This document shows positions 13,648-54,240 of a DNA stretch of 64,000 nucleotides, piece after piece; the stretch's first letter is position 1, and each line of letters begins with the position of its first letter. The notes under the pieces were generated by a model that worked only from the letters and a program-made list of their open reading frames with translations, did not search any database and was not told the origin of the DNA. The position numbers and the translations under genes were made by a program. The stretch comes from Owenia fusiformis (taxonomy: Eukaryota), in contig CAIIXF020000001.1 of the NCBI GenBank assembly GCA_903813345.2, forward strand, positions 1,302,001 to 1,366,000. The letters are read 5' to 3'.

Positions 13648-13720
13648 GTGGGTATTAAAGCATAACATCGGATCCTTCCCCAATTCTCATGTTTTACCAT
13701 CTCCTCACAATCCCCCACCC

Positions 13721-15120
13721 CATATTTAGCTTTTGGATACTTTTAAAGAATCTTTTCTGGATCGCCATTGATATTCTGTCCAATATATGCCCCCCCCCCC
13801 ATCCTAAGCTTTTGGATACTTTTAATGAATCTTTTCTGGATTACCATTGATATTCTGTCCAATATATGCCCCCCCCCATCTTAAGCTTTTGGATACTTTT
13901 AATGAATCTTTTCTGGATCGCCATTGATATTCTGTCCAATTTATGCCCCCCCCCCATCTTAAGCTTTTGGATACTTTTAATGAATCTTTTCTGGATCGCC
14001 ATTGCTATTCTGTCCAATAAATGCCCCCCCCCCATCTTAAGCTTTTGGATACTTTTAATGAATCTTTTCTGGATCGCCATTGATATTCTGTCCAATATAT
14101 GCCCCCCCCCCCCATCTTAAGCTTTTGGATACTTTTAATGAATCTTTTCTGGATCGCCATTGATATTCTGTCCAATATATGCCCCCCCCCCCATCTTAAG
14201 CTTTTGGATACTTTTAATGAATCTTTTCTGGATCGCCATTGATATTTATCCAATATATGGCCCCCCCCATCTTAAGCTTTTGGACACTTTTAATGAATCT
14301 TTTCTGGATCGCCATTTATATTCTGTCCAATATATTGCCCCCCCCCCCCCATCTTAAGCTTTTGTATACTTTTAATGAATCTTTTCTGGATCGCCATTGA
14401 TATTCTGTCCAATATATGCCCCCCCCCCCCCATCTTAAGCTTTTGGATACTTTTAATGAATCTTTTCTGAATCGCCATTGATATTCTGTCTAATATATGC
14501 CCCCCCCATCTTAAGCTTTTGGATACTTTTAATGAATCTTTTCTGGATCGCCATTGATGTTCTGTCCAATATATGCCCCCCCCCCATCTTAAGCTGTTGG
14601 ATACTTTTAATGAATCTTTTCTGGATCGCCATTGATATTCTGTCCAATATATGCCCCCCCCCATCTTAAGCTTTTGAATACTTTTAATGAATCTTTTCTG
14701 GATCGCCATTGATATTCTGTGCAATATATGCCCCCCCCCCCCATCTTAAGCTTTTGGATACTTTTAATGAATCTTTTCTGCATCGCCATTGATATTCTGT
14801 CCAATATATTGCCCCCCCCCCATCTTAAGCTTTTGGATACTTTTAATGAATCTTTTCTGGATCGCCATTGATATTCTGTCCAATATATGGGCCCCCGCAT
14901 CTTAAGCTTTTGGATACTTTTAATGAATCTTTTCTGGATCGCCATTGATATTCTGTCCAATATATGGGACCCCGCATCTTAAGCTTTTGGATACTTTTAA
15001 TGAATCTTTTCTGGATCGCCATTGATATTCTGTCCAATATATGCCCCCCCCCATCTTAGCTTTTGGATACTTTTAATGAATCTTTTCTGGATCGCCATTG
15101 ATATTCTGTCCAATATATGG
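13721..15120 (+). repeat. Minisatellite, about 18 copies of a ~77-81-bp unit with a variable poly-C tract
   Basis: Unit catcttaagcttttggatacttttaatgaatcttttctggatcgccattgatattctgtccaatatatg + (C)n, in SLC43A3 intron 3. Confidence 0.97.
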
Positions 15121-15743
15121 GCATGTCGTGGTAAAAAAAATTCAAACAGCCGCCATTTTGTTCACTTCAACATTTGAATCATGGTTTTTGATTTTATTTT
15201 CCAATGAAAAATTCCAGAAAACACAGAAGCAATGATCGAGATATTGGTTCGAATCTTTTGGACTGTTTGTATTGAATTTATAGTCGATTATAATTTCAGA
15301 AAATAACGACATTTCGACGTTTTCATTGTTGGAAAATATCGAGTTTCGATCCTGGGAGCCAATCATCCTTGCATTTATTTAAGAGGTCATAGATATCCCA
15401 ATGAGCGATAATTCACAGCAAATGTAAATGAATGTTAAAAACATATCTTCAAACTTTGCATTGGGCCTTTAAATATGTTGAATAAATAAACACTCTTGGA
15501 TATCTAACAAAAGGCAGTTAAGGAAAGACAAAAAAACATTACTACGCATAATATAATTTTGTAACATTTCTAAATGAATGGATTTGCCAAAACTATGTTA
15601 TACCTGTAAAGAACTACAATGCAATAATTTAGAGAATGTTAGAGTATATAATTCTAAACATAGAAATCTACCTTACCTTTCGGCTTGTCTATTTGTTCTT
15701 CTATGATACATTGTAACATGATTGGTCTTCGTTGTGCCTCCAG

Positions 15744-16389
15744 CTTCAGTACGAGAATGGGATTCCCTTGTCTTCTTCCTTGTATGTGTTCCTGTCTGTC
15801 TTCTTGCCAATCACACTCCTGGGGACGTTCATATTTCAACCTCGGAAGCATATCCATTTGGACAACAACGGGAGACATCCAATGGCATTTACCATCTTAC
15901 AACGAATGAGAGTAGCCAGATATATAGCCACAAATGTTGCGCGGGATGAGGAAGTCCAAAAATCCTATTCGACAGATGGAACAAAGGATTGTGCGCCTAG
16001 TGAGAGTAGGGCTGAACTCCAAGGATACACGAATAAAGCATTTGAAGCACCAAATGAAGCAAATCTGAGTGGTCGTGATATCCGTCCAACTGAATCAAAA
16101 ACCGATGATATAAAAACGATAAGTGAGTGTCGACCAAAAGATTTGGTGATCGAAGATTCAACAGCCAATAGTAAAGAAGCGACCACGGACTGTAGCAGTT
16201 TGCCAATCAAAGCTACATCCAAAAATAATACATCTGATATTGAAACAGATAGGCTTTCTAAAATACTGTTTTCACCATTATTTCTATGGAATATATGGAC
16301 ATTTTCTGTATTGAATTTGAGGAGTCAATACTTCTTCGTCTCGTTCAACTCGTGGATTACAGATCTGAGTGCTGGCGATAGAAACCAAG
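15744..16389 (+). CDS. SLC43A3: SLC43A3-like exon 4 (TM segment, large cytoplasmic loop, next TM)
   Basis: Acceptor gcctccAG; LQYENGIPL...TFIFQPRKHI...ILFSPLFLWNIWTFSVLNLRSQYFFVSFNSWI matches SLC43 motifs. Donor CAAG|GTATGA, phase 1. Confidence 0.88.
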
Positions 16390-16545
16390 GTATGAAGTTA
16401 GTTTGAACTAATACATTACCTGATTATAGATTACAACATGTCTTCTTGATCAAGTCTGAGAAAATATTCATGGTAAAAGATGTGACTCTTTAAAATCATT
16501 TGGCATACCAACCTCGTACATTTACCTAACTTGGCCTTATTTCAG

Positions 16546-18926: not shown

Positions 18927-19306
18927 TATCGTCGTATGAGAATAATTATGTCCCAAGTGCTATTTATCTCCTCTCAATAGCCTGCTTTTCAGTGTCAAAT
19001 TGTCCAAACTCCATAAAAAATTCAAAATACCATTCAACTTTTTTCTATGTTTCACTTTAACCAATCAAATTGTTTGAATTACACCATGTGACTAAGAATT
19101 ATTATATTACAATTTTAAACTGAGAAAATTGGCCTAGAAAATCTTAAAATTCATGAATTTTTTAGTGTATATACACAAATTTTTGATTAAAAGAATGTCA
19201 AAATTTCACAAATGACAGATAGATAGGATTGAAGTTACAGATGCCTAAACTGATTTTTTGGTTTCACAAAAATGTGGGTTGGGACATTTTTTCTCATAGG
19301 GCGATA
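18927..19306. mobile_element. MITE with ~28-bp imperfect TIR, TA-flanked
   Basis: tatcgtcgtatgagaataattatgtccca versus tgggacattttttctcatagggcgata. Confidence 0.6.
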
Positions 19307-19385
19307 TATCATCTTCGTTCACTCGGCTCCCGTCGGTCGATGAACTCAGTGAAGACCGAGCGTGCGAAGATGGCGATATTTAGAG

Positions 19386-19697
19386 GTTATGTCACTATGA
19401 CGTGAAATATGCCTGAGTTCTCCCAATATAGGCCGACCTTGGGAGGCTCTATATTTGGGCAAGAACGAAGGCATATTTCACGTCATAGTGACATAACTGA
19501 TGTATTACATGCCTTTGTTCCCATGGTTACTTTGTATCAATGACGTGACGTCATGATATTATCATGGTTATTAAAGAAATCTAATATCAAAACGAGGTAA
19601 GCGGGCTATATCGGGGTAATCGGGCAATATCGGTGGATATAGCTCGCTAACTTTCCCATTGACTTCCATACAAATGCTTCGCTAGGTATGTAATACA
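19386..19697. mobile_element. Hairpin (19386-19497) plus TIR-bounded unit (19501-19697)
   Basis: gttatgtcactatgacgtgaaatatgcct ... aggcatatttcacgtcatagtgacataac, then tgtattacatgcct ... aggtatgtaataca. Confidence 0.7.
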
Positions 19698-19922
19698 TTG
19701 TGATATATTAATATTGTGAAAAATATCTTTTCTATTCTCTTGAATGCCTGTATTGAATAAACTCACCGAATGGGACTTGTTTATGTTGCTCTATAAATCA
19801 TGAAAGAAGAATTAAACAAATAGCGTCGAGGATAACGTGTGTCTCAGTTAAAGTGAATGTCACAATGTGATAAGAGGGCTGATGTCTTCAAAGTGAAGCA
19901 TAAGTAGGAGACGGACCAATGG

Positions 19923-21832: not shown

Positions 21833-24800
21833 AATGGTATAAATTACCTGTAAATGTGATCGTAAATGTAATTAAAGACCCTCCATTCCAATACCCCAAT
21901 CCTACACTACTCAAGGGAAAGATCAATACCCGGTGATTTCAGCGGGAAGTGGCGTTTCGTTCAGTGGATGAGCTGCGCGCGCACGCATAAATGTGATTAT
22001 CCAATATAATTAGGGGAGGGCTATTTGAAGTAGTTTTTGGTCTCAGGCGCGACCCAGGGCTGTTGTCTTAAGGACATTTCGTTGAAAATGAGCCATTCGG
22101 CTGATAATTGGTAAGAGTTTGCGATCTTATAATGTATAACTGTTACTCAGACACATATTTTGACACGATTCTGTTGGAAATAAGCTTTGAACCGAGAGAT
22201 ATTCACGATTGATATGCACATTTTTGATTGTGCCATTGCTTTTCTATTGCACAACCCATGTATTGATAGAAGAAACATTAATAATACAGATTGGTTTACC
22301 TTCAATACATGGCAGACACTACATATCGGTATATTAATACCAGTTTGTGCCTTAAATAGTTTTATATTTCCATCCACGGCCTGGAGCCTGGGTGTGTTTG
22401 TCTCTTATGTGTATGCTTGTGCATGGACTTCTAATCACTAGCAGAATTTAACATGATGCAAACTCGACATTATAACTCATGCTGTAACATTTTGACTTCG
22501 CTGGAAAACAATAGGAATTATTTTTCTTGCCAATCAATCATGAATCACAATCAAAATTTCAGAATGATCAATCAGGCAATGATCCAAATCAAGTTATAAC
22601 ATTATATGATATTCAGCAAGAAGTCCGGTAGAAATACAGAATATTTAAACATCAAAGCTGAAAGTTAAAAGCTAATCTGTCAATTTTCTGTCTGCAAAAG
22701 AGCGTCCCAAGAGCGTTTACATTTGACACAATAACAGACTGAGGCCTTGAAATCTAGGATTCCCCAGGAAAATATGACGTCATACTAATTAGCATAAGGA
22801 TTTCCCTATTGGGGTGGGTCGAGCCTTGTTCGAAAACACAATCCATAAATACATGCTAATTTCTAAGGAGATAGGAAGTGTATAACGTGTTTATCGATTT
22901 TGTTTAAAGATTTAATCAATTATCAAATTGTTTAAGTGGATAAAGTGGTCACACTTGCTTCAATTCATAGCGAAATCGACGGATAGAAACTGACCGAATT
23001 CCCGATATCCTACCCCGTATTACTGTAGGCTATAAGCATAGTGACCTACAGAGGGCGCTATCACAAACAAGTACTGGACGAACCGATAAATTCCCGGGTA
23101 TTGTAACGCCCTTGCACTACTCGAGACACATAATTTGTTTGACCAATCACCTTTCCACAAAGTAAAGAAAATCGATAATTTCCTGCGCGCTGATTGGTTG
23201 TATGCAAATGAGTCAAATCAATGACGTCAATGGTAGAAAGTTTTGAAGAATTAGTACAGCCAGCATAGGAATATTTTGAATAAACTACAATAAAAAGGAT
23301 TCTATTTGCCAAATGCACAAATTATTTTTAATCAAATATGAAATATGGACGGGGCACTTTGATTCCGAACCTTATGTAATTTAAATTAATCATTTTTTGA
23401 CAGAACTATTGTTTATTAAGACTTCTGAGATCAGCTTCACATACCCGGGCTCACATATCTCGTGCGATTGTAAACAAAAAATGTAAATTGTGAAGTTACA
23501 AACAACTCGGTTTAATTATCTGATAGTGGTCATACAATATTCTGTTAAATGGTTATATGTCGTAGTAAGAAGTTCCATCATAAATTCACCATGAGTGACA
23601 TTCGCGCAAACTAAACCAATCGAATTGAAACACGATTTGTTTGACTTTGTTATTGAGGATCGATCCCATCTCCATAATACACATTAACAAAATATTTTCA
23701 AAAGCATGCATGAATATGTTACGGTAACTAAAACCATGGGCTTTCAAGATCATGAAAGCCAATGACTAAACTAACTTTCTTTTCATTGGAACTTTTTCCA
23801 GTTGCAATTTCAGTAAAACGTAGAACGGGTTTCTCGCTAAACGCAACTGGGCCTCATTAAAAAACCTTCATTTCATCCTCCAAACTTGGAGAACGCCCAT
23901 TGGCTATTAAAAAGATAACTTCGAAGCCAAATTTTCTATCCAAGAAGCTAGACTTAAACCATTACTTTATTATTTACCAAATGAAATTTGTTCATAGTAC
24001 ATATACGATATCGTTACCTTTTGGTATTAATTCGCCATCAGCGATGTCAATAACGATCAGCAATGTCAACATATCATCAATGAATATTATAGATATACGC
24101 TCTTTCTTTGAAATCTTTCCGGTGATCATTATTCAAAACCGATCATCACATAACTAATTTATCCTATGACAAGTGAGGTTTCACAAGTGAAGTTTTCAGG
24201 ACACATATTTAGGTTTGTTTTCTAAGCGTTCTCATTATTTTCGAGAAATCCATCATCGTTTTGGCTAAGAAAATTTTACGGTCTGCTGGATCTATTTTGA
24301 CAGTTTTGCTTTAGCAAGATATTCTAACAAATTGACTGTTTCTACACTGAATAAAAAACATTTTCCCGGGAATATTTGGATCGGGAGATACGCAGCGGGA
24401 AATATACATTGGAATATATCAATTCTATATTCCGATGTTTTCATGTATAATATTTTCAAGATACGATCTTATATATGACTTGCAGAAATAGATAGGAAGT
24501 AATCGTGATTAGTTAATTGAATTATGGGAGTAGTGAAGTCAATGATTAAATGAATAAGAGCAAATGTTTTTAATTTGAACAGGTCATTCATCAAATGACA
24601 CTGAAGATTAACTTAAAATAGATTGTCTATCTATGTATTTTTATGCATGAGAGAAAATTGTTATAATGTTGGTGAACCAATAATTATGATAATTTCACCT
24701 GTTCACATGCAGTTCCCATTATGATTGAAAAATGACCGGGAGTAATTCTCTTCAATTTATTTACTCATTATGAACAGAAATTTAATATTTAAAACCATTC

Positions 24801-29069: not shown

Positions 29070-30525
29070 CACTCCCCTCCAAAAGTTTGGCAACCTAAGT
29101 TCCCTTGTTGAACAACGTGTTAAAGCTTCTTTATGTTTGAATTTTTATTTAAATAACCTGCGAGGAAAACACCTATAATATTGATGGAAATGTTACTTGA
29201 TTTCATTTCCAATGCCTCCAAATTCTCTCAACCTGTTCCCTCAATTACAATAGGTCGAAAATTGATGATAAATCCGATGAATTTTTGAAAATTGACATTC
29301 CTATGTTAACCGATGAGAAATGGTAGGTTTTCCGCAAGTCATATGACAGAATATTTATCCCTCCGAGTTCTTACAAAACGTACAAGTTAGGTAGGCTAGT
29401 GAATTTGCTAAATTTGTTTAATAAAAAATTGATATGTTTCTTCAGGTTTAAAAAAGTTATAGGCTTTCAAAGCCAAACTTATTTTTCAAAAAACTCCTAT
29501 TGAAATAACACAGGAGGCAAAAAATTATTTTCAAAAATAACTTTGAAGCTATGTAACATTAGTATTCATAAGCAAGCTGAACACTTAGCGTACAAAAAGT
29601 CAGACAATTCAATTTTATATTAAAAATATTTTTTTGGTAAATCTTTTACTGGATAGATATCCTGAAATCCGATTTGGCCCGAACCCACCATTTCCCATTG
29701 GTTTACATGGGAATGACGATTTTCAAAAAAATCATCAAAGAAGGAGGGAAATTAGCGCAACAGATTTTGGACAGTCATATGTTGGATTTTGGCCAATTTC
29801 TGAGGATTTAAACAATGGCATATGTTAGGCCAATGCGTTACCTCCAGGAAAATCACTTCTAGAGATGATAAAACAATTTCGACTATGAAACAGGGTAGAT
29901 GCAAACAACCCACCAACATGTTTTCCTGATTTTCGACCCCTTCCATCCCTGCTTCTTCAATTTTTCTTGCATCAATATGTTGCGTTTTGACACATAGTTA
30001 ACCACTTAAAGGGAATAAATGATTCCTTCAGGGGTTTTAAAGATAACCATTATGGGTGACCAAACTTAGCTGAAAGCAATGATTTTCCCTATGGGAAAAT
30101 AATATGGGAAATATTGTTTTCGACTTTATCTAAAAGGAATCACTTATTCCTTTTAAGGGATTAAATGTGTGTCAAAGCGCAACATATTGATGCAAGAAAA
30201 ATTTAAAAAGCAGGTATGGAGGGGTTGAAAATCAGGAAAACATTACAGAAAAAACATGTTGGTGGGTTGTTTGCATATACCCTGTCTCAAAGTCAAAATT
30301 ATTTTATCATCTCTAGAAGTGATTTTCCTGGAGGTAATACATTGGCCTAACATATGCCATTGTTTAAATCGCCAGGAAATGGCCAAAATCCAACATATGA
30401 CTGTCCAAAATCTGTTGCGCTGATTTCCCTCCTCCTTTATCATCAATTTCGACCTATTGTAAGGGAAAAATGGAAAAAAATTTGAGGCATTGGAAATTAA
30501 GCCAAGTTACGTTTCAATCAATATG
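29070..30525. mobile_element. Tc1-like foldback element with a central ~700-bp palindrome
   Basis: TA|CACTCCCCTCCAAAAGTTTGGCAACC end; 29740-30030 inverted versus 30135-30435; 29185-29272 inverted versus 30437-30522. Confidence 0.7.
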
Positions 30526-31283: not shown

Positions 31284-34200
31284 CACTGGCATGTAGCGGC
31301 CCTGATATCGATAAATTCTACACGCAATATAACCCGATTTTAGATGCTTGGTTAAAACTTTACACGAAAAAGCCTCGATATCCGGGCATTTACTCTTACA
31401 CTGAACTGAAAATAGCATCGTCTAAACGCGTATGTCTTGGCTTCCGGGTAAGTCTATCAACATTTATACTCAATTGAAAGAGCAGTCGTGCTTATATCAC
31501 TGGCATGTAGCGATTATAGCGGTCCTGTCTTGGCTTATTGAATTGTTACGAAGTTACGTATGCGGTGCGGAAGTTAGAGAGCAAATGACCATCATTTCAA
31601 TGTAATAGTTTATGCAGGAAAATTGAGATTAGGCCATTGGAGTATTTGTTTCATGCATTTGTAAAACATTACCCACTCATAGGTCATACTTATCGTTAAA
31701 CCAATAACTCAAATATATGCCCTTGTACACCGATCACCTGTTGAAATTAATACAGGCCGATTTCAACAAATGTAAAGGGCGATATATTTAAAATCGTATT
31801 CAAGCATGATCACGCCCCACTTCTTTTGTTTTCTTTACAACTAAGCTATGACTGCAGTCTATTCAGTGTTGCGTATCGAACCTTGTTTATTATAAAAATA
31901 GTGCAACAACAAGCAGAATTCACACATTTACCTTATACTTATTCTCAACTGAAGACATTGAATTTATCTCTTAGGTTTTACATTATAAATATCTTAACAT
32001 GCAGAATACGAAAATAGAGGCTTAGGCCCAACTTTGTATGAATTTTATGAGAATAATCTGATTTTAGAGAAATGAAAAGAAAAATGTCCACACCCTACAC
32101 AAAATATTTATGGTTCCCCGGGAATACGTATGTGCTGCTTGTATATTAGAATCGTATTCCAGTTACAGAAAGAAGTACATATCATGCTAAACTATATACA
32201 ACAGTTATGCACTTGGAGGTTTTGGATACAGGGAATATCCCGAGGGATATATAATTCATCTTCCCTTGGTCCCTTCGGTCCCTCGGGAAGATATATTGTT
32301 TATCCCTCGGGATATTCCCTGTATCCAAAACCTCCAATTGCATAACCCCTATATATTGGCCAAGGGATAATCCCAATATCCTGAACCGCGACTATAGGAT
32401 AATATGTTTATCCCATACCAATCTTGGTCATCTGGTTCACATTTTTAAATCGTGGAAACATTTTAGAATATTCATGTCCAGTTTTGTTTTCTTGGCCGTG
32501 GGCGGATTTTCATGTTCTCTCAAATATTCCCATATTCTCTCGAATTTTTTATTGATTAAGTGGATGCTCTTTCCCCTTTTTTAACTATCAAACAGACCCT
32601 GATTGTCTGTGTTTTCTCCATTGCCGTTTACAGTCATTCCGCGAACGTTACAAATTATGAACAAACATGCAAGCGGCGATTATGACGTAGCGGGCAGATA
32701 TACTATATCTGCCCGCTTGGAGCGGGGCGTAAAGCTTTATCCCATGGTTGCAAGGAGGATATAGATCGAATATCACATGATGATATATTTGATATGTGGA
32801 TCAAGATATCATATTTTAGCAAACAATTTACAAACCATCGAATATCACTTTTAAACTATCGAATATCACATCTTAAATAGAGGATATCCTATGATTTATG
32901 AGTGATATGATTTTTATCCACGAATGGATATGATATCTGCACGAGTGAGCGTAGCGAGAGAGTGCAGATATCAACATCCATAAGTGGATTAAAATCATAT
33001 CACGAGTAAATCATAGGATGTTCTTTATATTCCATAGTTAAAGTCATCATCAGAATCGTCGGGAATTAAGTGATTTAAAACGAATTTTCCAAACGATACG
33101 GCAATATTGACACTTAGCCTCGTTTTGAGTCTGAAGTAGCAAAAATCCATAAACCATGGCATACGGCGCCGTATGTCATGGCTAAAAGCCCCCCCCCCCC
33201 CCTAAAACACCGTATGCTATGGTTAAGTGAAAATTTGCCAAAAATATCATATTTTACCACTGATTTCAAAAGTACCGTTTTTATTTTGACATGTTATCCT
33301 ATGGATATCATGCTAACTATGGAATAATATAGGAATATCCTATGGCTCTGAAAAAATATCACTTATATCCATGAGTGGATATTGATATCTTCGCCAGTGA
33401 GCGCAGCGAATGAGTGAAGATACTGATATCCATGAGTGGATATAAGTGATATTTTTGAAAAAACATAGGATTGTCCGTTTATCCCATTGGGAATTATTAT
33501 CCAGCGAACATTGAATAGTCAGATAAATTGCAATGGAAATTCCATTTGGTCTGACATTTTGATTGCGATAATTCAACGAACGTCATATACGTGACGTAAC
33601 AGAGTGGTTTGTATTTAATGCGAACGCCGTAAAAACAAGATCCCAAAAAATAAAAATATATAATAAATATATAAACAATCGTTTTGCTGAATTAATAAAA
33701 AAATTGAAAAAATCAAAACCATCGAATATCACTTTTGAAACCATCGAATATCACTTTTGAAACCATCGAATATCACCTTTCAAAAAGTGACATTCGATGG
33801 TTTCAAAAGTGATATTCGATGATTTGGGAATTGTTTGCTAAAATATGATCTTCATCCACGTATCAATTATATCTTCACGTGATATTCGATCTATATCCTT
33901 GTAACCATGGGATAAATAAGGGTTATGTACTGGGGGGTTTTGGATATGGGGTTTTTCCAGAGGGAGATATGCATATCTACCTGAGGGACCGTAGGGACAG
34001 AAAGTAGATGTGCATATCTCACGAGGGATGAACCCAATATCCAAACCGACCGTACATAACTGCTTTATCCTATACCAAGTAGAGTTTTCAGTAGTACAAG
34101 GTGTAAAAAATAAACAAATCATTCATATGCAAAGTCATTTTATTGCATTTCCACTTTTTTTGGAAGCGGGAAGATACGCCCCGAAGCGGGAAGATATGCA

Positions 34201-37200
34201 CCGAAGCGGGAGATATGACGGGAGATATGGAGGTTCTTGATATGGAAACCTCAAAATCAGGATACGGGATATATCTTTTTCCAACTTATCTCCCTAAAAC
34301 CCTACTTGGCATAGGATAAATCAAGATAATTTCTACTCGCATCTAGTCTATTCCACATATTTGGGAAAAGTGTACAGGAAAATCTCCATGTTCAATTGAT
34401 GTATGATCAATATATACGAATCGAATGTATTCTCGTGTGCATTACAATATCCACATTGAAACATTTTTGGCCTGCAATGGACGTATAATAAATTAGAATA
34501 TGAGGCCGTGTTATCATTCTAATGTAAAGTCATGGTATTTACTGTGGTATTGGGTTGCAAGCTAATATCAGATTCAATGCAAATTAATCATCTAATATCA
34601 GATGCGCGATCAGTCCAATAATCTAATTTCAGGTCATCAGTTCGATATCTAGCACTTGTTCTAACGACACGGTATTACTAGGCTATCATATTATAAATAC
34701 ACACACATATAAAACAATCAAACTGGTACACGATATAAGCACGACTGCTCTTTCAATTGAGTATAAATGTTGATAAACTCACCCGGAAGCCAAGACATAC
34801 ACGTTTAGACGATGCTATTTTCAGTTCAGTGTAAGAGTAAATGCCCGGATATCGAGGCTTTTTCGTGTAAAGTTTTAACCAAGCATCTAAAATCGGGTTA
34901 TATTGCGTGTAGAATTTATCGATATCAGGGCCGCTACATGCCAGTGTTATATCGTGTACCAGTTTGATTGTTTTATATGTGTGTGTATTTATAATATGAT
35001 AGCCTAGTAATACCGTGTCGTTAGAACAAGTGCTAGATATCGAACTGATGACCTGAAATTAGATTATTGGACTGATCGCGCATCTGATATTAGATGATTA
35101 ATTTGCATTGAATCTGATATTAGCTTGCAACCCAATACCAAAGTAAATACCATGACTTTACATTAGAATGATAACACGGCCTCATATTCTAATTTATTAT
35201 ACGTCCATTGCAGGCCAAAAATGTTTCAATGTGGATATTGTAATGCACACGAGAATACATTCAATTCGTATATATTGATCATACATCAATTGAACATGGA
35301 GATTTTCCTGTACACTTTTCCCAAATATGTGGAATAGACTAGATGCGAGTAGAAATTATCTTGATTTATCCTATGCCAAGTAGGGTTTTAGGGAGATAAG
35401 TTGGTAAGATATATCCCGTATCCTGATTTTGAGGTTTCCAAATCAAGAACCTCCATATCTCCCGTCATATCTCCCGCTTCGGTGCATATATTCCCGCTTC
35501 GGGGCGTATCTTCCCGCTTCCAAAAAAGTGGAAATGCAATAAAATGACTTTGCATATGAATGATTTGTTTATTTTTTACACCTTGAACTACTGAAAACTC
35601 TACTTGGTATAGGATAAAGCAGTTATGTACGGTCGGTTTGGATATTGGGTTCATCCCTCCTGAGATATGCACATCTACTTTCTGTCCCTACGGTCCCTCA
35701 GGTAGATATGCATATCTCCCTCTGGAAAAACCCCATATCCAAAACCCCCCAGTACATAACCCTTATTTATCCCATGGTTACAAGGATATAGATCGAATAT
35801 CACGTGAAGATATAATTGATACGTGGATGAAGATCATATTTTAGCAAACAATTCCCAAATCATCGAATATCACTTTTGAAACCATCGAATGTCACTTTTT
35901 GAAAGGTGATATTCAATGGTTTCAAAAGTGATATTCGATGGTTTCAAAAGTGATATTCGATGGTTTTGATTTTTCCATTTTTTTATTAATTCAGCAAAAC
36001 GATTGTTTATATATTTATTATATATTTTTATTTTTTCGGATCTTGTTTTTACGGCGTTCGCATTAAATACAAACCACTCTGTTACGTCACGTATATGACG
36101 TTCGTTGAATTATCGCAATCAAAATGTCAGACCAAATGGAATTTCCATTGCAATTTATCTGACTATTCAATGTTCGCTGGATAATAATTCCCAATGGGAT
36201 AAACGGACAATCCTATGTTTTTTCAAAAATATCACTTATATCCACTCATGGATATCAGTATCTTCACTCATTCGCTGCGCTCACTGGCGAAGATATCAAT
36301 ATCCACTCATGGATATAAGTGATATTTTTCAGAGCCATAGGATATTCCTATATTATTCCATAGTTAGCATGATATCCATAGGATAACATGTCAAAATAAA
36401 AACGGTATTTTTGAAATCAGTGGTAAAATATGATATTTTTGGCAAATTTTCACTTAACCATAGCATACGGTGTTTTAGGGGGGGGGGGGGGCTTTTAGCC
36501 ATGACATACGGCGCCGTATGCCATGGTTTATGGATTTTTGCTACTTCAGACTCAAAACGAGGCTAAGTGTCAATATCGCCGTATCGTTTGGAAAATTCGT
36601 TTTAAATCACTTAATTCCCGACGATTCTGATGATGACTTTAACTATGGAATATAAAGAACATCCTATGATTTACTCGTGATATGATTTTAATCCACTTAT
36701 GGATGTTGATATCTGCACTCTCTCGCTACGCTCACTCGTGCAGATATCATATCCATTCGTGGATAAAAATCATATCACTCATAAATCATAGGATATCCTC
36801 TATTTAAGATGTGATATTCGATAGTTTAAAAGTGATATTCGATGGTTTGTAAATTGTTTGCTAAAATATGATATCTTGATCCACATATCAAATATATCAT
36901 CATGTGATATTCGATCTATATCCTCCTTGCAACCATGGGCTAAAGCTTTACGTCCCGCTCCAAGCGGGCAGATATAGTATATCTACCCGCTACGTCATAA
37001 TCGCCGCTTGCGTGTTTGTTCATAATTTGTAACGTTCGCGGAATGACTGTAAACGGCAATGGAGAAAACACAGACAATCAGGGTCTGTGTGATAGTTAAA
37101 AAAGGGGAAAGAGCATCCACTTAATCAATAAAAATTCGAGAAAATAAATATGGGAATATTTGAGAGAACATGAAAATCCGCCCACGGCCAAGAAAACAAA

Positions 37201-38181
37201 ACTGGACATGAATATTCTAAAATGTTTCCACGATTTAACAATGTGAACCAGATGACCAAGATTGGTATGGGATAAACATATTATCCTATAGTCGCGGTTC
37301 AGGATATTGGGATTATCCCTTAGCCAATATGTAGGGGTTATGCAATTGGAGGTTTTGGATACAGGGAATATCCCGAGGGATATACAATATATCTTCCCGA
37401 GGGACCGAAGGGACCAAGGGAAGATGAATTATATATCCCTCGGGATATTCCCTGTATCCAAAACCTCCAAGTGCATAACTGTTGTATATAGTTTAGCATG
37501 ATATGTACTTCTTTCTGTAACTGGAATACGATTCTAATATACAAGCAGCACATACGTATTCCCGGGGAACCATAAATATTTTGTGTAGGGTGTGGACATT
37601 TTTCTTTTCATTTCTCTAAAATCAGATTATTCTCATAAAATTCATACAAAGTTGGGCCTAAGCCTCCATTTTCGTATTCTGCATGTTAAGATATTTATAA
37701 TGTAAAACCTAAGAGATAAATTCAATGTCTTCAGTTGAGAATAAGTATAAGGTAAATGTGTGAATTCTGCTTGTTGTTGCACTATTTTTATAATAAACAA
37801 GGTTCGATACGCAACATTGAATAGACTGCAGTCATAGCTTAGTTGTAAAGAAAACAAAAGAAGTTGGGACGTGGTCATGCTTGAATACGATTTTAAATAT
37901 ATCGTCCTTTACATTTGTTGAAATCGGCCTGTATTCATTTCAACAGGTGATCGGTGTACAAGGGCATATATTTGAGTTATTGGTTTAACGATAAGTATGA
38001 CCTATGAGTGGGTAATGTTTTACAAATGCATAAAACAAATACTCCAATGGCCTAATCTCAATTTTCCTGCATATTACATTGAAATGATGGTCATTTGCTC
38101 TCTAACTTCCGCACCGCATACGTAACTTCGTAACAATTCAATAAGCCAAGACAGGACCGCTATAATCGCTACATGCCAGTG
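31284..38181 (+). mobile_element. Outer copy of a ~3.45-kb non-autonomous DNA transposon (15-bp TIR CACTGGCATGTAGCG, 6-bp TSD ATGAGT), split by the inner copy
   Basis: ATGAGT|CACTGGCATGTAGCG at 31278/31284 and CGCTACATGCCAGTG|ATGAGT at 38181/38187. Its body is 31284-31497 plus 34953-38181. Confidence 0.92.
31498..34946 (-). mobile_element. Inner, complete, inverted copy of the same transposon, 6-bp TSD TTATAT
   Basis: TTATAT|CACTGGCATGTAGCG (31492/31498) ... CGCTACATGCCAGTG|TTATAT (34946/34952). 34739-34946 is the reverse complement of 31284-31491. Confidence 0.92.
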
Positions 38182-38195
38182 ATGAGTGATTGCTT

Positions 38196-38463: not shown

Positions 38464-38907
38464 TTATACCACTCTAAGTCCAATTACAGTTGTATAACAT
38501 GGGTCTATAACAACGATATACAGTGGAGAGTGGTATATCGTCATCGTATACAACTCCTCCGTATACACTCCAGCGTATACCACTGTAGAAGTGCATTCTG
38601 GGAAATAATGAATAAAAAAATCATGATTTCCTAGAATCAAGTGACGTCATAAATCAACATCAGCATTATTGAGTTGGCTGTCAATGGGATATTTTTATGG
38701 TTTTTAATTGTTATGATTGTGTTCGAATCAACTGTAATTGAACTTAGAGTGGCATAATAAGATTATATAATGGTTCATTCTGTATATCGTGCATTTTATA
38801 CTCTCGTGAGAATATAATATATTCACTCGTTCGCTACGCTCACTTGTGAATATATCATATACTCACTCGAGTATAAACACGATATACAGAAAGAACCATT
38901 TATATAA
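38464..38907. mobile_element. TIR-bounded unit (38464-38757) plus long hairpin (38763-38907)
   Basis: ttataccactctaagtccaattacagttg versus caactgtaattgaacttagagtggcataa; the hairpin is centred on cactcgttcgctacgctcacttgtg. Confidence 0.7.
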
Positions 38908-39412
38908 CCTCATAATATCCTATTCACTCCAAATATGCCAGTTATCCTCCGATAAGGCGAATTTAAGACATGTACATGTAGGTATATCATGTACAAAATT
39001 GACGCACTATCCTGTCATGTACGAAGACGTAACAAACTTTATCTCTTTTTCATTACACCATCTATTCAATAAATATAAATATATTCATAAATATGATATA
39101 TTATGTACAATTATAAATAAAACAGTATTTCTTTATTATAAATAAAACAGTATTTCTTTTTAATTTATACAGTTATATTCTTAGAAATCTTCCAAGGTCT
39201 TGGACCAGGCATTACTTTTTGTAAGTTAGCTATATACATCGCCCTTTCTTTGGGATTACACCTAACTATATTTCTATAGTATTCAAATACCATTATAAAT
39301 GGAAGGTAGATATGCTTGCACGAAGATAGATATGATATAATATTGTGATGTCATGCATTTCGTTGTGTTCTTTAATAAGAGTGACATCCTCTCTAACAAC
39401 GGCGTTCTTGTT

Positions 39413-39739
39413 CTATACAACGACGGGACGAGAGGACGCAGTTAGATTCAACGGTCCACTCTGTTGTGGCTCAAATACGTTATCGTCCATATACATTGAC
39501 GTAGCATCCACGTTGACACGCAATGGTGCCACGTGAGGTGACGTCATTTTAACACCTGGAGATTTCATTGATTGTCCCATAGACATGAGAATATCTCGAG
39601 AACGGTCCTCTTGTTTTACAATACACGGTGGAGCTGCCGAGACTTCTTGCTTTGCTTGTGCGTGGGTCAACAAGTGTGCTCTGAGGTGGCTTCGCTGAGT
39701 AAAAACTTTATCACAAGTTTCACATTTATGCGAGGATTC
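39413..39739 (-). CDS. odd: odd-skipped/Osr terminal exon (zinc finger 4 and C-terminal tail)
   Basis: Acceptor tatgttttcAG; ESSHKCETCDKVFTQRSHLRAHLLTH...GPLNLTASSRPVVV*. Confidence 0.88.
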   Translation of the reverse strand, partial: ESSHKCETCDKVFTQRSHLRAHLLTHAQAKQEVSAAPPCIVKQEDRSRDILMSMGQSMKSPGVKMTSPHVAPLRVNVDATSMYMDDNVFEPQQSGPLNLTASSRPVVV

Positions 39740-39994
39740 CTGAAAACATATGAAGCTGATGTCAACGTTTTATCCATGGAAATATTGGAACAACTAGAAC
39801 GCAATCTATGTCGATGTAGAAAATCCATGTTAAATCATTTTATATTAATTGTTGATTTTCGTCTATTCATTTTTTTGTTTTTTATTTAAAATAGTCAACA
39901 GAAGGCTATTGTAAGGGTTATGTGCTGATTGAACATGCAGGGTGACCCAAAAGTAGGTTTACAGTTTACAGTAAGAGTTATAGTATACATTCAC

Positions 39995-41375: not shown

Positions 41376-41539
41376 CTGAAATAGAAAGAAACAATTCATT
41401 GAGTATATAAGAGGCCAAAAAGAAACTAAAAATTATCTTTAGTATCATCATCATTCAAAATCAAAACAATAACGAGGCAAATATTTTTTATATTAATGTA
41501 ATACAACCACTGAAGTAATATTGAACTAAAATAATATAC

Positions 41540-41948
41540 CTTTTGTTTTATTAGCTGATTCAGGTCCATTTTCTTTCAACTTCAGTAAAGACCACGCTGA
41601 GCCAAGATCCTGTGACGCAAACATTGACGTCATCGGAAAGGAATATGGATACATGAATGGAGTGTTAGAGATCCCGGATGTTGAGGGGTATGTGACTGGA
41701 GTGGGGTATTGCATACACTGCAAAAGTGATGCCTGTAAGGATGGCATGTTGCCGAGGTTTGGATATGCGGGATGAAGCAACGGAAATGACGGGTATATTG
41801 GCCTTGGAATCACAATAGATGTCTCTAGATCTGACTTCATGGTTGATTGGGTTGGCGCCAATAAACACGTGTTTCCAAGAAACAAAGGCTGTGGTTTGAC
41901 AACGCTTTGTTTTGTGGCAGCAGGTTTAACATCGACATCCATTCGCAT
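41540..41948 (-). CDS. odd: odd-skipped/Osr zinc-finger TF, first coding exon (Pro/Ser/Met-rich N-terminus; exon acceptor at 41989)
   Basis: ORF 41526-42023; acceptor tgtctttgcAG before 41989, first in-exon in-frame ATG at 41948, donor AAAG|GTATAT phase 1. The start codon is inferred. Confidence 0.7.
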
Positions 41949-42372
41949 GTCTTTTCCTAAGTGGTTATCTTCAATATCAAGTCGATGACCTGCAAAGACA
42001 TATGAGATCATATGTGACATCATGTTTAAGACATTCGAGATATTTAATCATGGTGGCTGGACGAAGGGCCCGATTACATTATGAGAACTAACCATTTGGC
42101 GCATCAAAGGTGCCCTTCATCGGTATACCTTAGATTTATGATTGGAATATTGTTTTGATTTGGAACGGAATTTAATTTTATCTGAATTTTATTGGTGTTA
42201 CTACAGTAGAAATGTAGTGACACTTTGATAGTGTCATCTCTGTGCAAACAGAGGAGTCAAGTAGAATGGTCAAACGGTTATTTTGGTCACTCTCTCCACT
42301 TCTGAAGTGGCCGGTATTGTCATCATGTAACCAAGCATGCTCAGTAAGACCGAAATACACATTTCAAGAATT

Positions 42373-52526: not shown

Positions 52527-54240
52527 CAGGGCCGTCAGATGGGGGGGTGCGATGGGTGCGACCGCACCCCCCTTTGTCACCCCCAAAAATAAATTTGAAA
52601 AAAAAATTTTGAAAAAAAAAATTTTTGAAAAAAATTTTTTTTATAATTTTTTTTTCATTGACTCATACACTTTGAAAGTACCCAGAAAGCACCAAATAGC
52701 ATCTTAAAATTGTAAAATATTCTAGGGGTATTGGCAACCCCTCACACCCCCCACAAAACAATGGAAAAGTTCTAAATTTATTTTAGTGTTTTGTCTCAGA
52801 CACTTTTAAAGTGCCCAGACATCATCAAATAGCTCCTTGATATAGTAAGTGTTTCTGGGGGACTTGCTCCCCCTCTTGCATCTTGCACTTGCATAGACCC
52901 CCCCCCCCTCGGGCACCCCCCCCTTGACCCCCCCCCCAAAAAAAAATTGTGATTTTCTCAAATTCTTTAATTGACTCATACACTTTAAAAGTGCCCAGAA
53001 AGCACCAAATAGCGTTGTAAAATTGTAAAATTTTCTAGGGGGAGTGGGCCACCCCTCACACCCCAAACAAAACAATGGAAAAGTTCTGAATTTGTTTTAT
53101 GTACTGTCTCAGACACTTTTAAATTGCCCAGACATCATCATCATCCTTGATAAAGTTAACGATTCTGGAAGACTAACACTTACTCGCCCTCTGGCATCCC
53201 CACTCCACCTCCCCCTCTGGCAGCCTCCCCCCCCCTTAACACCCCCCCCCCCAAAAAAAAAGCCAGAAAGCACCAAATAGCAACTTAAAATTGTAAAATT
53301 TTCTTGGGAAATAGGCACTTTTAGGCACAGACACTTTTAAAGTGCCCAAACTTCATCGAATAGCACCTTGATATTGTAAATTTTGATATGGGGGACAAAC
53401 ACTTGCCCCCCCTCTGGCACCCCAGCCCCACCTCCCCCTCTGGCACCCCCCCCCCCCCCCTTTGACACCCCCAAAATTTTAAAAAAAATTGTGATTGTTT
53501 TTCAATGTTTTTATTGACTAATATACTTTAAAAGTGCCAAGACGCACCAAATATCATCTTTAAATTGTAAAATTTTCTAGGAGAGTTAGCCACTCCTCAC
53601 ATCCCCCACAAAACAAAAGAAAATATTCTGAATTTCATGTATTGTCTCAGACATTTTTTAAGTGCCCAGACATCATCAAATAGCACCTTGATATGGTCAA
53701 TGTTTCTGGGGGACAACCCCTTGCTCCCCTACTGGCACCACACCCCACTTCACCTTCTCATCCACTTTGACTCCCCCATAAGAATTTGAAAAAAATGCAC
53801 ATTTTTCTTATTGACTCATAACGCACAGGCGTACCAGCAAATTCGCTCCAAATACAACCAAATTTCAAAATTTTCCTGGGGGAGAACCCCCACACCCCCC
53901 TGAATACTCGGTTTTTTATTCACTCATCTCTTATTCTCATGGTGGTGGCGTACTACTTGGAAAGTTACACTTTGAAAGTGCCCAGAAAGCACCAAATAGC
54001 ATCTCAAAACTGTAAAATTTTCTAGGGGGAGTGGACCACTCCTCACACCCCCCACAAAACAATTGGAACTTTTGGAAGTTGCATTTGTTAATTCCAAACC
54101 AATATAGGGAGTAACTGAGCCCCCCCCCCCCTCTGACTTACGCGATTTGATTTACGCGGCAAAAAAATTGACAATTTTATATTCTCTTTAGTAAGCTAAA
54201 AAACCGCACCCCCCTTGGAGAAAAGTGTCTTACGGGCCTG
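52527..54240. mobile_element. hAT-like non-autonomous element with 5-bp TSD CTTGT and ~300-bp poly-C-rich internal subrepeats
   Basis: CTTGT|CAGGGCCGTCAGA ... TCTTACGGGCCTG|CTTGT; subterminal ccgcacccccc at both ends; repeated aaagtgcccagaaagcaccaaatagc blocks. Confidence 0.8.

Follow-up and report, generated by a model that had tools for sequence, protein, structure and literature searches.

Putative CryptonA-type elements with terminal hairpins in Owenia fusiformis and their probable recombination as a folded single strand

The window analysed here, a 64,000-nucleotide stretch of the Owenia fusiformis genome (contig CAIIXF020000001.1, positions 1,302,001 to 1,366,000), contains a 3.45-kb element in which long hairpins alternate with units bounded by terminal inverted repeats (TIRs), and the question is what these pieces are and how they came to be stacked. 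A preliminary description had read hairpins and units as independent modules, moved by a Crypton-like tyrosine recombinase and joined at ATAA-N5-TTAT dyads. The four hairpins lie where it had placed them, with limits refined to 32205-32345, 32884-33021, 33335-33473 and 33923-34059; the modules reported outside the element were found at 19380-19696 and 38464-38914, and the 3.45-kb element is the carrier at 31498-34946. The first of these outer modules does include a hairpin, though one of 110 bp (from 19387) and not of about 140 bp.

Each hairpin and its adjoining unit are, however, one element, the two halves of a small Crypton-derived transposon laid out as TIR-body-TIR, 5 nt, a hairpin of about 110-145 bp, and 7 nt. 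The features of the window are as follows.

19380-19696, minus strand: family B element, with unit 19696-19502, 5-nt spacer, hairpin 19496-19387 and 7-nt end 19386-19380.
31284-38183, minus strand: second carrier copy, inverted, in two parts (31284-31497 and 34947-38183) and split 215 bp from its end.
31498-34946, plus strand: carrier, a non-autonomous TIR DNA transposon with a 15-bp TIR that starts CACTGG, which has amplified the Crypton stack as a whole.
32192-32352, plus strand: E1, with a right TIR remnant, spacer 32200-32204, hairpin H1 32205-32345 and 7-nt end 32346-32352.
32353-32735, minus strand: E0, a broken element, with half a hairpin 32353-32402, 5-nt spacer 32403-32407 and a unit from 32408.
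32736-32876, plus strand: left end of an E3-like element, truncated and in opposite orientation, with 83% identity to 33748-33916 in reverse complement.
32877-33327, minus strand: E2 (family C), with unit 33327-33027, 5-nt spacer, hairpin H2 33021-32884 and 7-nt end 32883-32877.
33328-33915, minus strand: E3, with unit 33915-33479, 5-nt spacer, hairpin H3 33473-33335 and 7-nt end 33334-33328.
33916-34319, minus strand: E4, with unit 34319-34065, 5-nt spacer, hairpin H4 34059-33923 and 7-nt end 33922-33916.
38464-38914, plus strand: family A element, with unit 38464-38757, 5-nt spacer, hairpin 38763-38907 and a 7-nt end.

E3 lies head-to-tail with E2, and E4 with E3. The stretch 32736-33916 had been taken as a single TIR-bounded unit and must be divided: 33479-33915 is the unit that goes with the hairpin at 33335, while 32736-32876 is the truncated copy in opposite orientation. 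The 5-nt spacer of E4 is the junction described before at 34054, and its hairpin is about 80% identical to that of the recombinase locus L035/L068. A left TIR for E1 was not found within the carrier with up to 6 mismatches allowed; complete E1 relatives with both TIRs are L346 and L347. E0 contains the junction described at 32397, and a fuller relative of it is L348.

The layout recurs throughout the genome. With a query made of the hairpin only, all 30 copies of the 32884 family were joined via the 5-nt spacer to the right TIR of the unit, so that the halves do not behave as independent modules. The 7-nt end carried at most one change in 60/60 copies when the query left that end out; the corresponding family B query, which took in the 5-nt spacer together with 9 nt of the right TIR, tests the 7-nt end and the left end only. 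Family A has 591 candidates in the genome, with 30 copies having unrelated flanks, and family B has 1335, of which the top 40 are 100% identical with unrelated flanks; the ends of family B are related to those of recombinase loci L031/L065. Spacer exceptions are the L068-type family, in which 4 of 22 resolved copies have another 7-mer, and one H1-type copy, L346, with an inner spacer of 6 nt. In every family the end junction has a mirror copy, formed by right TIR, 5-nt spacer and left hairpin arm, and this copy is never a boundary (30/30).

The genome has 34 DUF3504 matches, and at five loci (L043/45/46/47/49) ends 97-98% identical to H2 and 84% identical to the E2 unit surround a two-exon ORF. 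As judged by these ends, E2 (32877-33327) derives by internal deletion from an element of 2.37 kb whose gene codes for a tyrosine recombinase of DUF3504 (CryptonA) type. The element is dispersed and multi-copy: among 40 copies scored of 1121 candidates, 5 were full and 35 shorter, with shared ends. Between the family C ends the recombinase alone forms a long ORF; no other transposase, reverse transcriptase or GCR1_C domain was found there, only the two recombinase exons and short antisense frames. Its catalytic R, K, HxxR, H and Y are all present, the motifs spanning both exons in L061-L064, unlike domesticated DUF3504 genes, which are without intact catalytic R-H-R-Y residues. Exon 1 matched PF12012 (E 5.7e-12) and exon 2 matched PF00589 at E 7.9e-6, just under the cut-off; QRICH1 was the only further Pfam domain over it, and relatives of the recombinase carry the name KIAA1958-like. 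In structure comparison, the predicted fold of a relative with 48% identity resembles those of Cre and QRICH1, with Z scores of 19.3 to Cre and 14.4 to the integron integrase. The gene is transcribed at a low level, and one contig of run X5 and 2 reads of X16 skip the intron.

A hairpin of the same kind lies 0.8-1.2 kb downstream of the domain in 11 of the 20 recombinase regions fetched, covering seven families, each with its own matching ends; near the gene it is absent from the other 9. On the basis of the protein, the elements are assigned as non-autonomous copies of tyrosine-recombinase transposons, probably of CryptonA type, and the Crypton-type derivation proposed earlier is borne out by the intact recombinase loci with the same ends. 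Published Crypton ends have no TIRs, and either a 4-6-bp direct repeat at both termini (F, S) or no terminal repeat (A, I). They are not matched here, as TIRs flank the gene and there is no conserved direct repeat. This lowers the fit to the published description and not the protein-based assignment, the description of animal Cryptons being an absence of findings: Kojima and Jurka 2011 (PMC3212892) report no terminal repeats for them, and its supplement 1 enters 'n.d.' for all CryptonA/I entries.

A separate, DDE-type TIR transposon (31498-34946) later spread one Crypton stack through the genome. Its inner part gave 1927 first-look candidates, the top 40 at 98-100% identity, and a 6-bp target site duplication (TSD) flanks 14 of 16 full copies fetched, the other 2 having 5 bp. 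In the window, the first carrier copy was inserted into the second, inverted one, producing a 6.9-kb mirror with arms 99% complementary; 6-bp TSDs were read from the sequence at both the inner and outer junctions. One carrier copy is without exactly E2. Mapping of element ends with the hairpin and unit 33922-34325 or with hairpin H1 failed, since all 30 loci of each search lay inside the carrier.

The elements, in turn, insert without duplication into an AT-rich dyad whose spacer is 6 nt long. Of 138 insertions, 94 have a half-site 6 nt ahead of the cut and 2 have it at 5 nt, against a background of 4%, and 114 have one directly after the cut; of the 20 with a spacing of 7 nt, 17 belong to family C and are for the most part copies of a single carrier event. 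A dif-like dyad is thus the target, as had been proposed, with a different spacer. The three ATAA-N5-TTAT junctions do occur in the window as described, but always inside elements and not as boundaries or insertion sites, so that three spacers are to be distinguished: N5 at the internal junction, N6 in the target and N7 at the element's own end. The dyad is strongly enriched at insertion sites with N6, and across the window N5 shows no significant enrichment (11 matches, 2 of which duplicate others owing to the inverted copy, compared with 6.6 ± 2.4 in 60 shuffles; with spacers from 3 to 9 nt there were 3-9 matches against 6.1-7.0).

Overlap between flanks was no longer than in shuffled pairs, indicating no TSD at module ends, with the family B flanks biased in this comparison because the query included a few flank bases. 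Empty sites are exact: 11 distinct junctions match uninterrupted repeat copies at no less than 92% identity and with no indel. Together with the head-to-tail copies, this upholds the earlier view of elements stacking on one another with no TSD. The TIRs of the units, and the 6-bp TSD of the TIR element that carries the stack, speak for an alternative in which MITE-like or Helitron-like repeats were moved by a DDE or HUH enzyme and the recombinase genes were passengers. It is exceedingly improbable, as TSDs occur at the carrier only and not at module ends, the recombinase is the sole long ORF in family C, seven families have ends of their own, a symmetric target with a 6-nt spacer is typical of tyrosine recombinases, and the exact empty sites largely refute it.

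The crossover always falls at the outer edge of the 7-nt end, and the target spacer is always on the left. The 7-nt end is nearly invariant (identical in 135/138 insertions), and hence the crossover of only one strand survives. A two-exchange duplex reaction without homology should place either spacer on either side.

The main mechanistic clue, overlooked in the preliminary description, is the strand-specific design of the hairpin tips, which consist of tandem G.A steps and a GNA loop on the non-coding strand. In 12 hairpins, which are partly related so that the counts are not independent, stabilising mismatches were biased toward that strand (G.A 59 : C.T 2; G.T 22 : A.C 9), and three control palindromes of the window had no such bias. 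The non-coding strand has the lower folding energy in 12/12, and the tandem G.A steps are kept between families while the intervening base pairs vary. The tip of E2 plus its end has 416 exact matches genome-wide, and in family C 416 tips were normal and 0 flipped. Relatives with the same layout and recurring 5/7 spacers occur in public metagenome contigs (e.g. L273, L282, L296, L300, L319). Counting against a fixed strand, however, 5 of the 24 tips recognisable in them point the other way, and no tip could be recognised in 7 of 31 hairpins; hairpin cores can become inverted in short-read assembly. No relative was found in a viral contig set.

The position of the hairpin 3' of a transcribed gene could also mean that it acts as RNA, either at the 3' end of the recombinase transcript or in an RNA intermediate, the DNA reaction being ordinary. 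This is very unlikely: the G.A and G.T mismatches and GNA loops sit on the non-coding strand, genomic copies retain the intron, the element has no reverse transcriptase, and Rfam gave no match at the gathering score, with generic microRNA-hairpin matches below it only.

The elements likely recombine instead as a folded single strand, inserting without target duplication at the N6 dyad, a reading to which we give a probability of about 0.6. By analogy with integron attC, a single strand exchange by the folded strand would be followed by replication. Once the ends are joined, in a circle or at a tandem junction, the non-coding strand would fold with the TIRs as outer stem and the hairpin as inner stem, opposing the 7-nt and 5-nt spacers in a 7/5 bubble of mean 6 with two stems around it, a recombinase site that would be absent from duplex DNA. 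The natural tandem junction in L061 folds in this way, as the model predicts. The recombinase would cut the folded strand where the TIR arm meets the 7-nt spacer, and that strand would change places with a single strand of the duplex target; on the non-coding strand the arm precedes the spacer, a polarity that suits cleavage there through a 3'-phosphotyrosine. The junction would be resolved by replication, as in attC x attI recombination, and the end junction of a resident element could serve as target, stacking copies head-to-tail like cassettes. A free single-stranded circle, a fork with single-stranded DNA, or a double-stranded circle bearing a cruciform could each supply the folded site; no intermediates were observed, and genomic tandem copies yield the same junction as a circle, the two being inseparable in raw RNA reads.

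It is possible, though doubtful, that CryptonA uses a duplex circle with a mismatched junction, like Tn916 or the bacterial SEs, one strand being propagated and the hairpin serving the circle as an accessory signal, for instance for priming or as an origin. Hairpins with a GNA loop and G.A steps are similar to the single-strand priming signals of plasmids, and the tips are flipped or lost in some relatives. The duplex circle is also the standing model in PMC3212892 and PMC13565253, the latter, a 2026 review, still citing it as untested, and SEs circularise one strand with no attC-like fold described in the abstract and Discussion of PMC9345347. A duplex circle, however, leaves the mirror end junction (30/30) unexplained, as well as the 5/7 split around a 6-nt target preference.

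Extending the folded-strand reading, we lean slightly toward CryptonA as self-mobilising integron-like cassettes, which would be the first eukaryotic DNA transposons with a recombinase acting on a folded single strand. The 5/7 bubble against the 6-bp target would pick the strand, the G.A/GNA tip would nucleate the fold or prime the second strand, replication would resolve the junction, and the design would be common to distant animals. Replicative resolution would bring copy-number gain and head-to-tail stacks; an active CryptonF, as reported in PMC9977147, combines clean excision with rising copy number, as such a route predicts.

No description of hairpin ends in Cryptons was found in the literature searched, and Repbase entry notes may already mention them. 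Crypton movement has never been demonstrated, and this genome offers exact ends, a target consensus, and a predicted cut strand and position. With an intact, spliced recombinase and copy families at 100% identity, the mechanism is directly testable using oligonucleotides and one protein. With the same rules, many palindromic repeats of invertebrates that are still unclassified can be assigned. If the folded-strand model is true, integron-like recombination evolved independently in eukaryotes, and a small recombinase that places a single strand in a relaxed AT-rich site, with no duplication, could find practical application.

In known systems, a folded single strand supplies the recombinase site in CTX-phi / XerCD-dif, and an internal complementary region of DIRS elements pairs with their ends. 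Unlike the elements here, CTX-phi uses host XerCD at one site, and DIRS have a reverse transcriptase and RNA passage. CryptonA elements (PMC3212892 and, for Glomhopper, PMC13465315) likewise have a single DUF3504-type tyrosine recombinase with intact catalytic residues, a length of about 2.0-2.4 kb and an animal host, and CryptonA shares with the present elements abundant deletion derivatives and no TSD; the present elements differ in that TIRs surround the gene, a hairpin stands at one end, the spacers are fixed at 5/7 nt, the target is a defined N6 dyad and a short direct repeat is absent. Certain bacterial tyrosine-recombinase elements also keep the spacer of one strand on one fixed side after integration, but have four core genes, including two recombinases, and no terminal hairpin in the accessible descriptions. 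Integron cassettes with attC (Loot et al. 2012, PMC3458562) share an imperfect hairpin of comparable size downstream of the gene, a strand-biased fold with an unpaired central spacer, a duplex partner site, one crossover at the element edge and head-to-tail arrays. In contrast to integrons, each element here encodes its own recombinase, the outer stem would be formed by TIRs flanking the gene, the targets are thousands of degenerate genomic sites and not attI, there is no IntI-family integrase with an attI and Pc platform, and single-strand use, shown there, is inferred here. The protein is no closer to IntI than to Cre, and since its fold is nearer to Cre than to the integron integrase, use of folded DNA by CryptonA would be convergent.

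The four hairpins, the units and the three ATAA-N5-TTAT junctions of the preliminary description were all found in the window sequence. In every copy of three families (A, window element 38464-38914, plus strand; B, 19380-19696, minus strand; C, the type of element E2, 32877-33327, minus strand), examined in 30 copies each with unrelated flanks, the layout is TIR-body-TIR, a 5-nt spacer, a long hairpin and a 7-nt end. In all 30 matches to a query inside the family C hairpin, the 5-nt spacer and right TIR adjoin one hairpin arm and the 7-nt end adjoins the other; the left TIR lies no more than 1.5 kb away in 27. As all 30 hairpins are joined to a right TIR by the 5-nt spacer, the N5 junction is internal and is not the insertion site or boundary originally proposed. 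Nor was this motif enriched window-wide (11 matches, 2 of them duplicates, versus 6.6 ± 2.4 expected), and 32736-33916 is not one TIR-bounded unit, as its ends come from two different copies. Elements E4 (33916-34319), E3 (33328-33915) and E2 form a minus-strand head-to-tail series in which the 7-nt end of each adjoins the next left TIR. A further ATAA-N5-TTAT junction occurs at 24150 (within 24100-24410), where the unit matches recombinase locus L048 and the adjoining hairpin has apparently been lost.

The E-stack is held by a separate TIR element, the carrier, listed here with other features of the window.

Features of the window
31498-34946: carrier TIR element, 3.45 kb, 15-bp TIR with first bases CACTGG; high-copy, non-autonomous
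31284-38183: second carrier copy, in inverted orientation and interrupted by the first; self-insertion giving a 6.9-kb mirror
13703-15130: tandem array, 18 copies of ~78-bp units
52565-54081: degenerate array of 130-180-bp units
661-1104 and 15717-16406, plus strand: exons of a likely membrane transporter gene (from translations; name provisional)
39413-39769 and 41526-42047, minus strand: exons of a likely C2H2 zinc-finger gene (from translations; name provisional)

In the genome searched, a 499.5-Mb eukaryotic assembly of ~35% GC, a 6-bp TSD flanks the carrier in 14/16 full copies. The carrier is a vehicle separate from the modules and probably driven by a DDE enzyme. E2 is precisely missing from one carrier copy (L023 = L352), and additional elements of the H1 hairpin type occupy different positions in further copies. 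A 700-bp palindromic element lies at 29737-30438, and its relatives sit within unit U2 of carrier variants L015 and L024. The E3-type unit includes direct and inverted 22-bp repeats (33716-33825 and 32824-32876), which account for weak microRNA-like Rfam scores.

A DUF3504 search of the genome returned 34 matches from 47 candidates. At 5 of the 30 loci listed, a two-exon ORF is enclosed by the ends of unit 33027-33327 (84%) together with hairpin H2 (97-98%); it encodes a recombinase with the full set of catalytic motifs, whose nearest named relatives are from corals and a bivalve, pointing to an invertebrate as the likely host. An intronless relative, P0001 (48% identical), has a predicted fold (pLDDT 74.8, 21-row alignment) with best structural matches to QRICH1 and Cre (Cre Z 19.3, rmsd 8.1 over 303 residues), followed by XerH (Z 15.4) and integron integrase and Tn1549 Int (14.4). 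RNA reads over the recombinase gene are sparse (<4-fold) and of single polarity in two runs; the 305-bp intron is absent from one contig of run X5 (type guessed as RNA) and from 2 reads sharing one start in X16. Among 20 fetched recombinase regions, a long hairpin lies 0.8-1.2 kb downstream of the domain in 11 (7 families) and 2 kb away in one more; no such hairpin was found near the gene in the remainder. Other modules also match recombinase loci: 19387-19717 (L031, L032, L033 and L056), H4/H1 (L035) and the module at 38753 (L047). The modules are very probably Crypton derivatives (probability about 0.95) and, by protein comparison, of CryptonA type.

Locus L061 (G000:C10:5203000-5212999) has five or more elements, from four families and all in the same orientation, within 8 kb, among them two 2368-bp recombinase elements head-to-tail. 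This cluster is local and cassette-like, and not inside any carrier.

Of 80 metagenome recombinase loci, 43 had at least 500 bp of downstream sequence, and 27 of these had a downstream hairpin by a loose test, a count that is weak by itself because upstream hairpins of other kinds occur in 25/48. The 29 downstream hairpins picked have the same 5/7 spacers, with letters identical to family C in several, and left TIRs are present wherever the contig extends far enough. In relatives including L261, L269-L271, L277 and L283, a short conserved hairpin bearing CCAAT-like boxes precedes the ORF by 40-210 bp and is perhaps a promoter.

Target sites were compared in 138 distinct flank pairs, 30 from family A, 60 from B and 48 from C; in the C set a single event is represented by many carrier copies. 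The end of a half-site RTAH is separated from the cut by 6 nt in 94/138 pairs (5 nt in 2, 7 nt in 20), and a half-site DTAY directly follows the cut in 114/138, against a background of 4% each. The likeness to dif, whose spacer is 6 nt, therefore holds for this target dyad. Overlap between flanks was not longer than in shuffled pairs. With tandem-pair self-matches and low-identity matches excluded, 11 distinct rebuilt junctions correspond to uninterrupted host-repeat copies (identity at least 92%, zero indels); two such matches are off by one base. In other samples, loose read ends that agree little with one another fall at both predicted boundaries and confirm the ends. Hairpin arms and units of other Cryptons, DNA rich in the dyad, are frequently hit by insertions (L062:5826-5850; L095, L207, L346). 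The family B 7-nt end adjoins a short, imperfect hairpin (19290-19375) whose GC-rich tip is similar; this is perhaps an older element that served as target.

The 7-nt end is identical in 135/138 insertions and in 17/22 resolved copies of a fourth family (one with a single change, four different; six further rows unresolved), and the target's own 6 nt are invariably on the left. No homology between element and target spacers was found across the flank pairs. By established chemistry, two strand exchanges without homology yield heteroduplexes and either spacer arrangement; the fixed arrangement therefore indicates a crossover of one strand. On the non-coding strand, opposite the recombinase coding strand, its order is arm then spacer, the polarity of tyrosine-recombinase cleavage. 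The main rival here is a double-stranded circle of which one strand is preferentially propagated, the comparator being bacterial SEs (available text of PMC9345347).

In 5/6 window families the hairpin tip on this same non-coding strand has, above the stem, a G.A/A.G step, two base pairs, a second G.A/A.G step, two more pairs and a GNA loop; the tandem G.A mismatches are constant among families and the pairs between them vary. Over 12 hairpins, from partly related families so that the counts carry no probability, G.A : C.T on the non-coding strand is 59 : 2 and G.T : A.C 22 : 9, against G.A : C.T of 2:6, 7:4 and 1:1 in three unrelated window palindromes. Family C tips in the genome are 416 normal and 0 flipped. 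Tips of 31 picked metagenome hairpins, read by eye, are 19 normal, 5 flipped and 7 unrecognisable; the flipped tips argue against a strict polarity requirement, unless they arose by misassembly or by later inversion. A natural tandem junction is computed to fold into a single rod, with the TIRs as outer stem and the 7-nt spacer opposite the 5-nt spacer.

A folded-single-strand mechanism is on balance favoured. The joined ends would most likely fold up on the non-coding strand, which the recombinase would exchange with one strand of the duplex target, and replication would complete the reaction, on the model of attC x attI, for which folded-strand exchange followed by replication is shown in the available text of PMC3458562. 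Excision, the least constrained step, may use the same fold in place, with left TIR, right TIR and hairpin uniting both ends on one strand. An active CryptonF combines clean excision with copy gain (available sections of PMC9977147), which fits a folded-strand replicative route.

As far as the accessible text of PMC3212892 goes, terminal repeats were not found in animal Cryptons, and none of PMC13465315, PMC8969392, PMC5753468, PMC8869645 and PMC13565253 describes, in the portions available, the hairpin and 5/7-spacer end design. Literature searches, which covered papers and not Repbase entry notes, likewise found no description of it. The locus itself contributes a 5/6/7 spacer rule and a predicted cut strand, together with precise empty sites and a young family whose spliced enzyme is intact.
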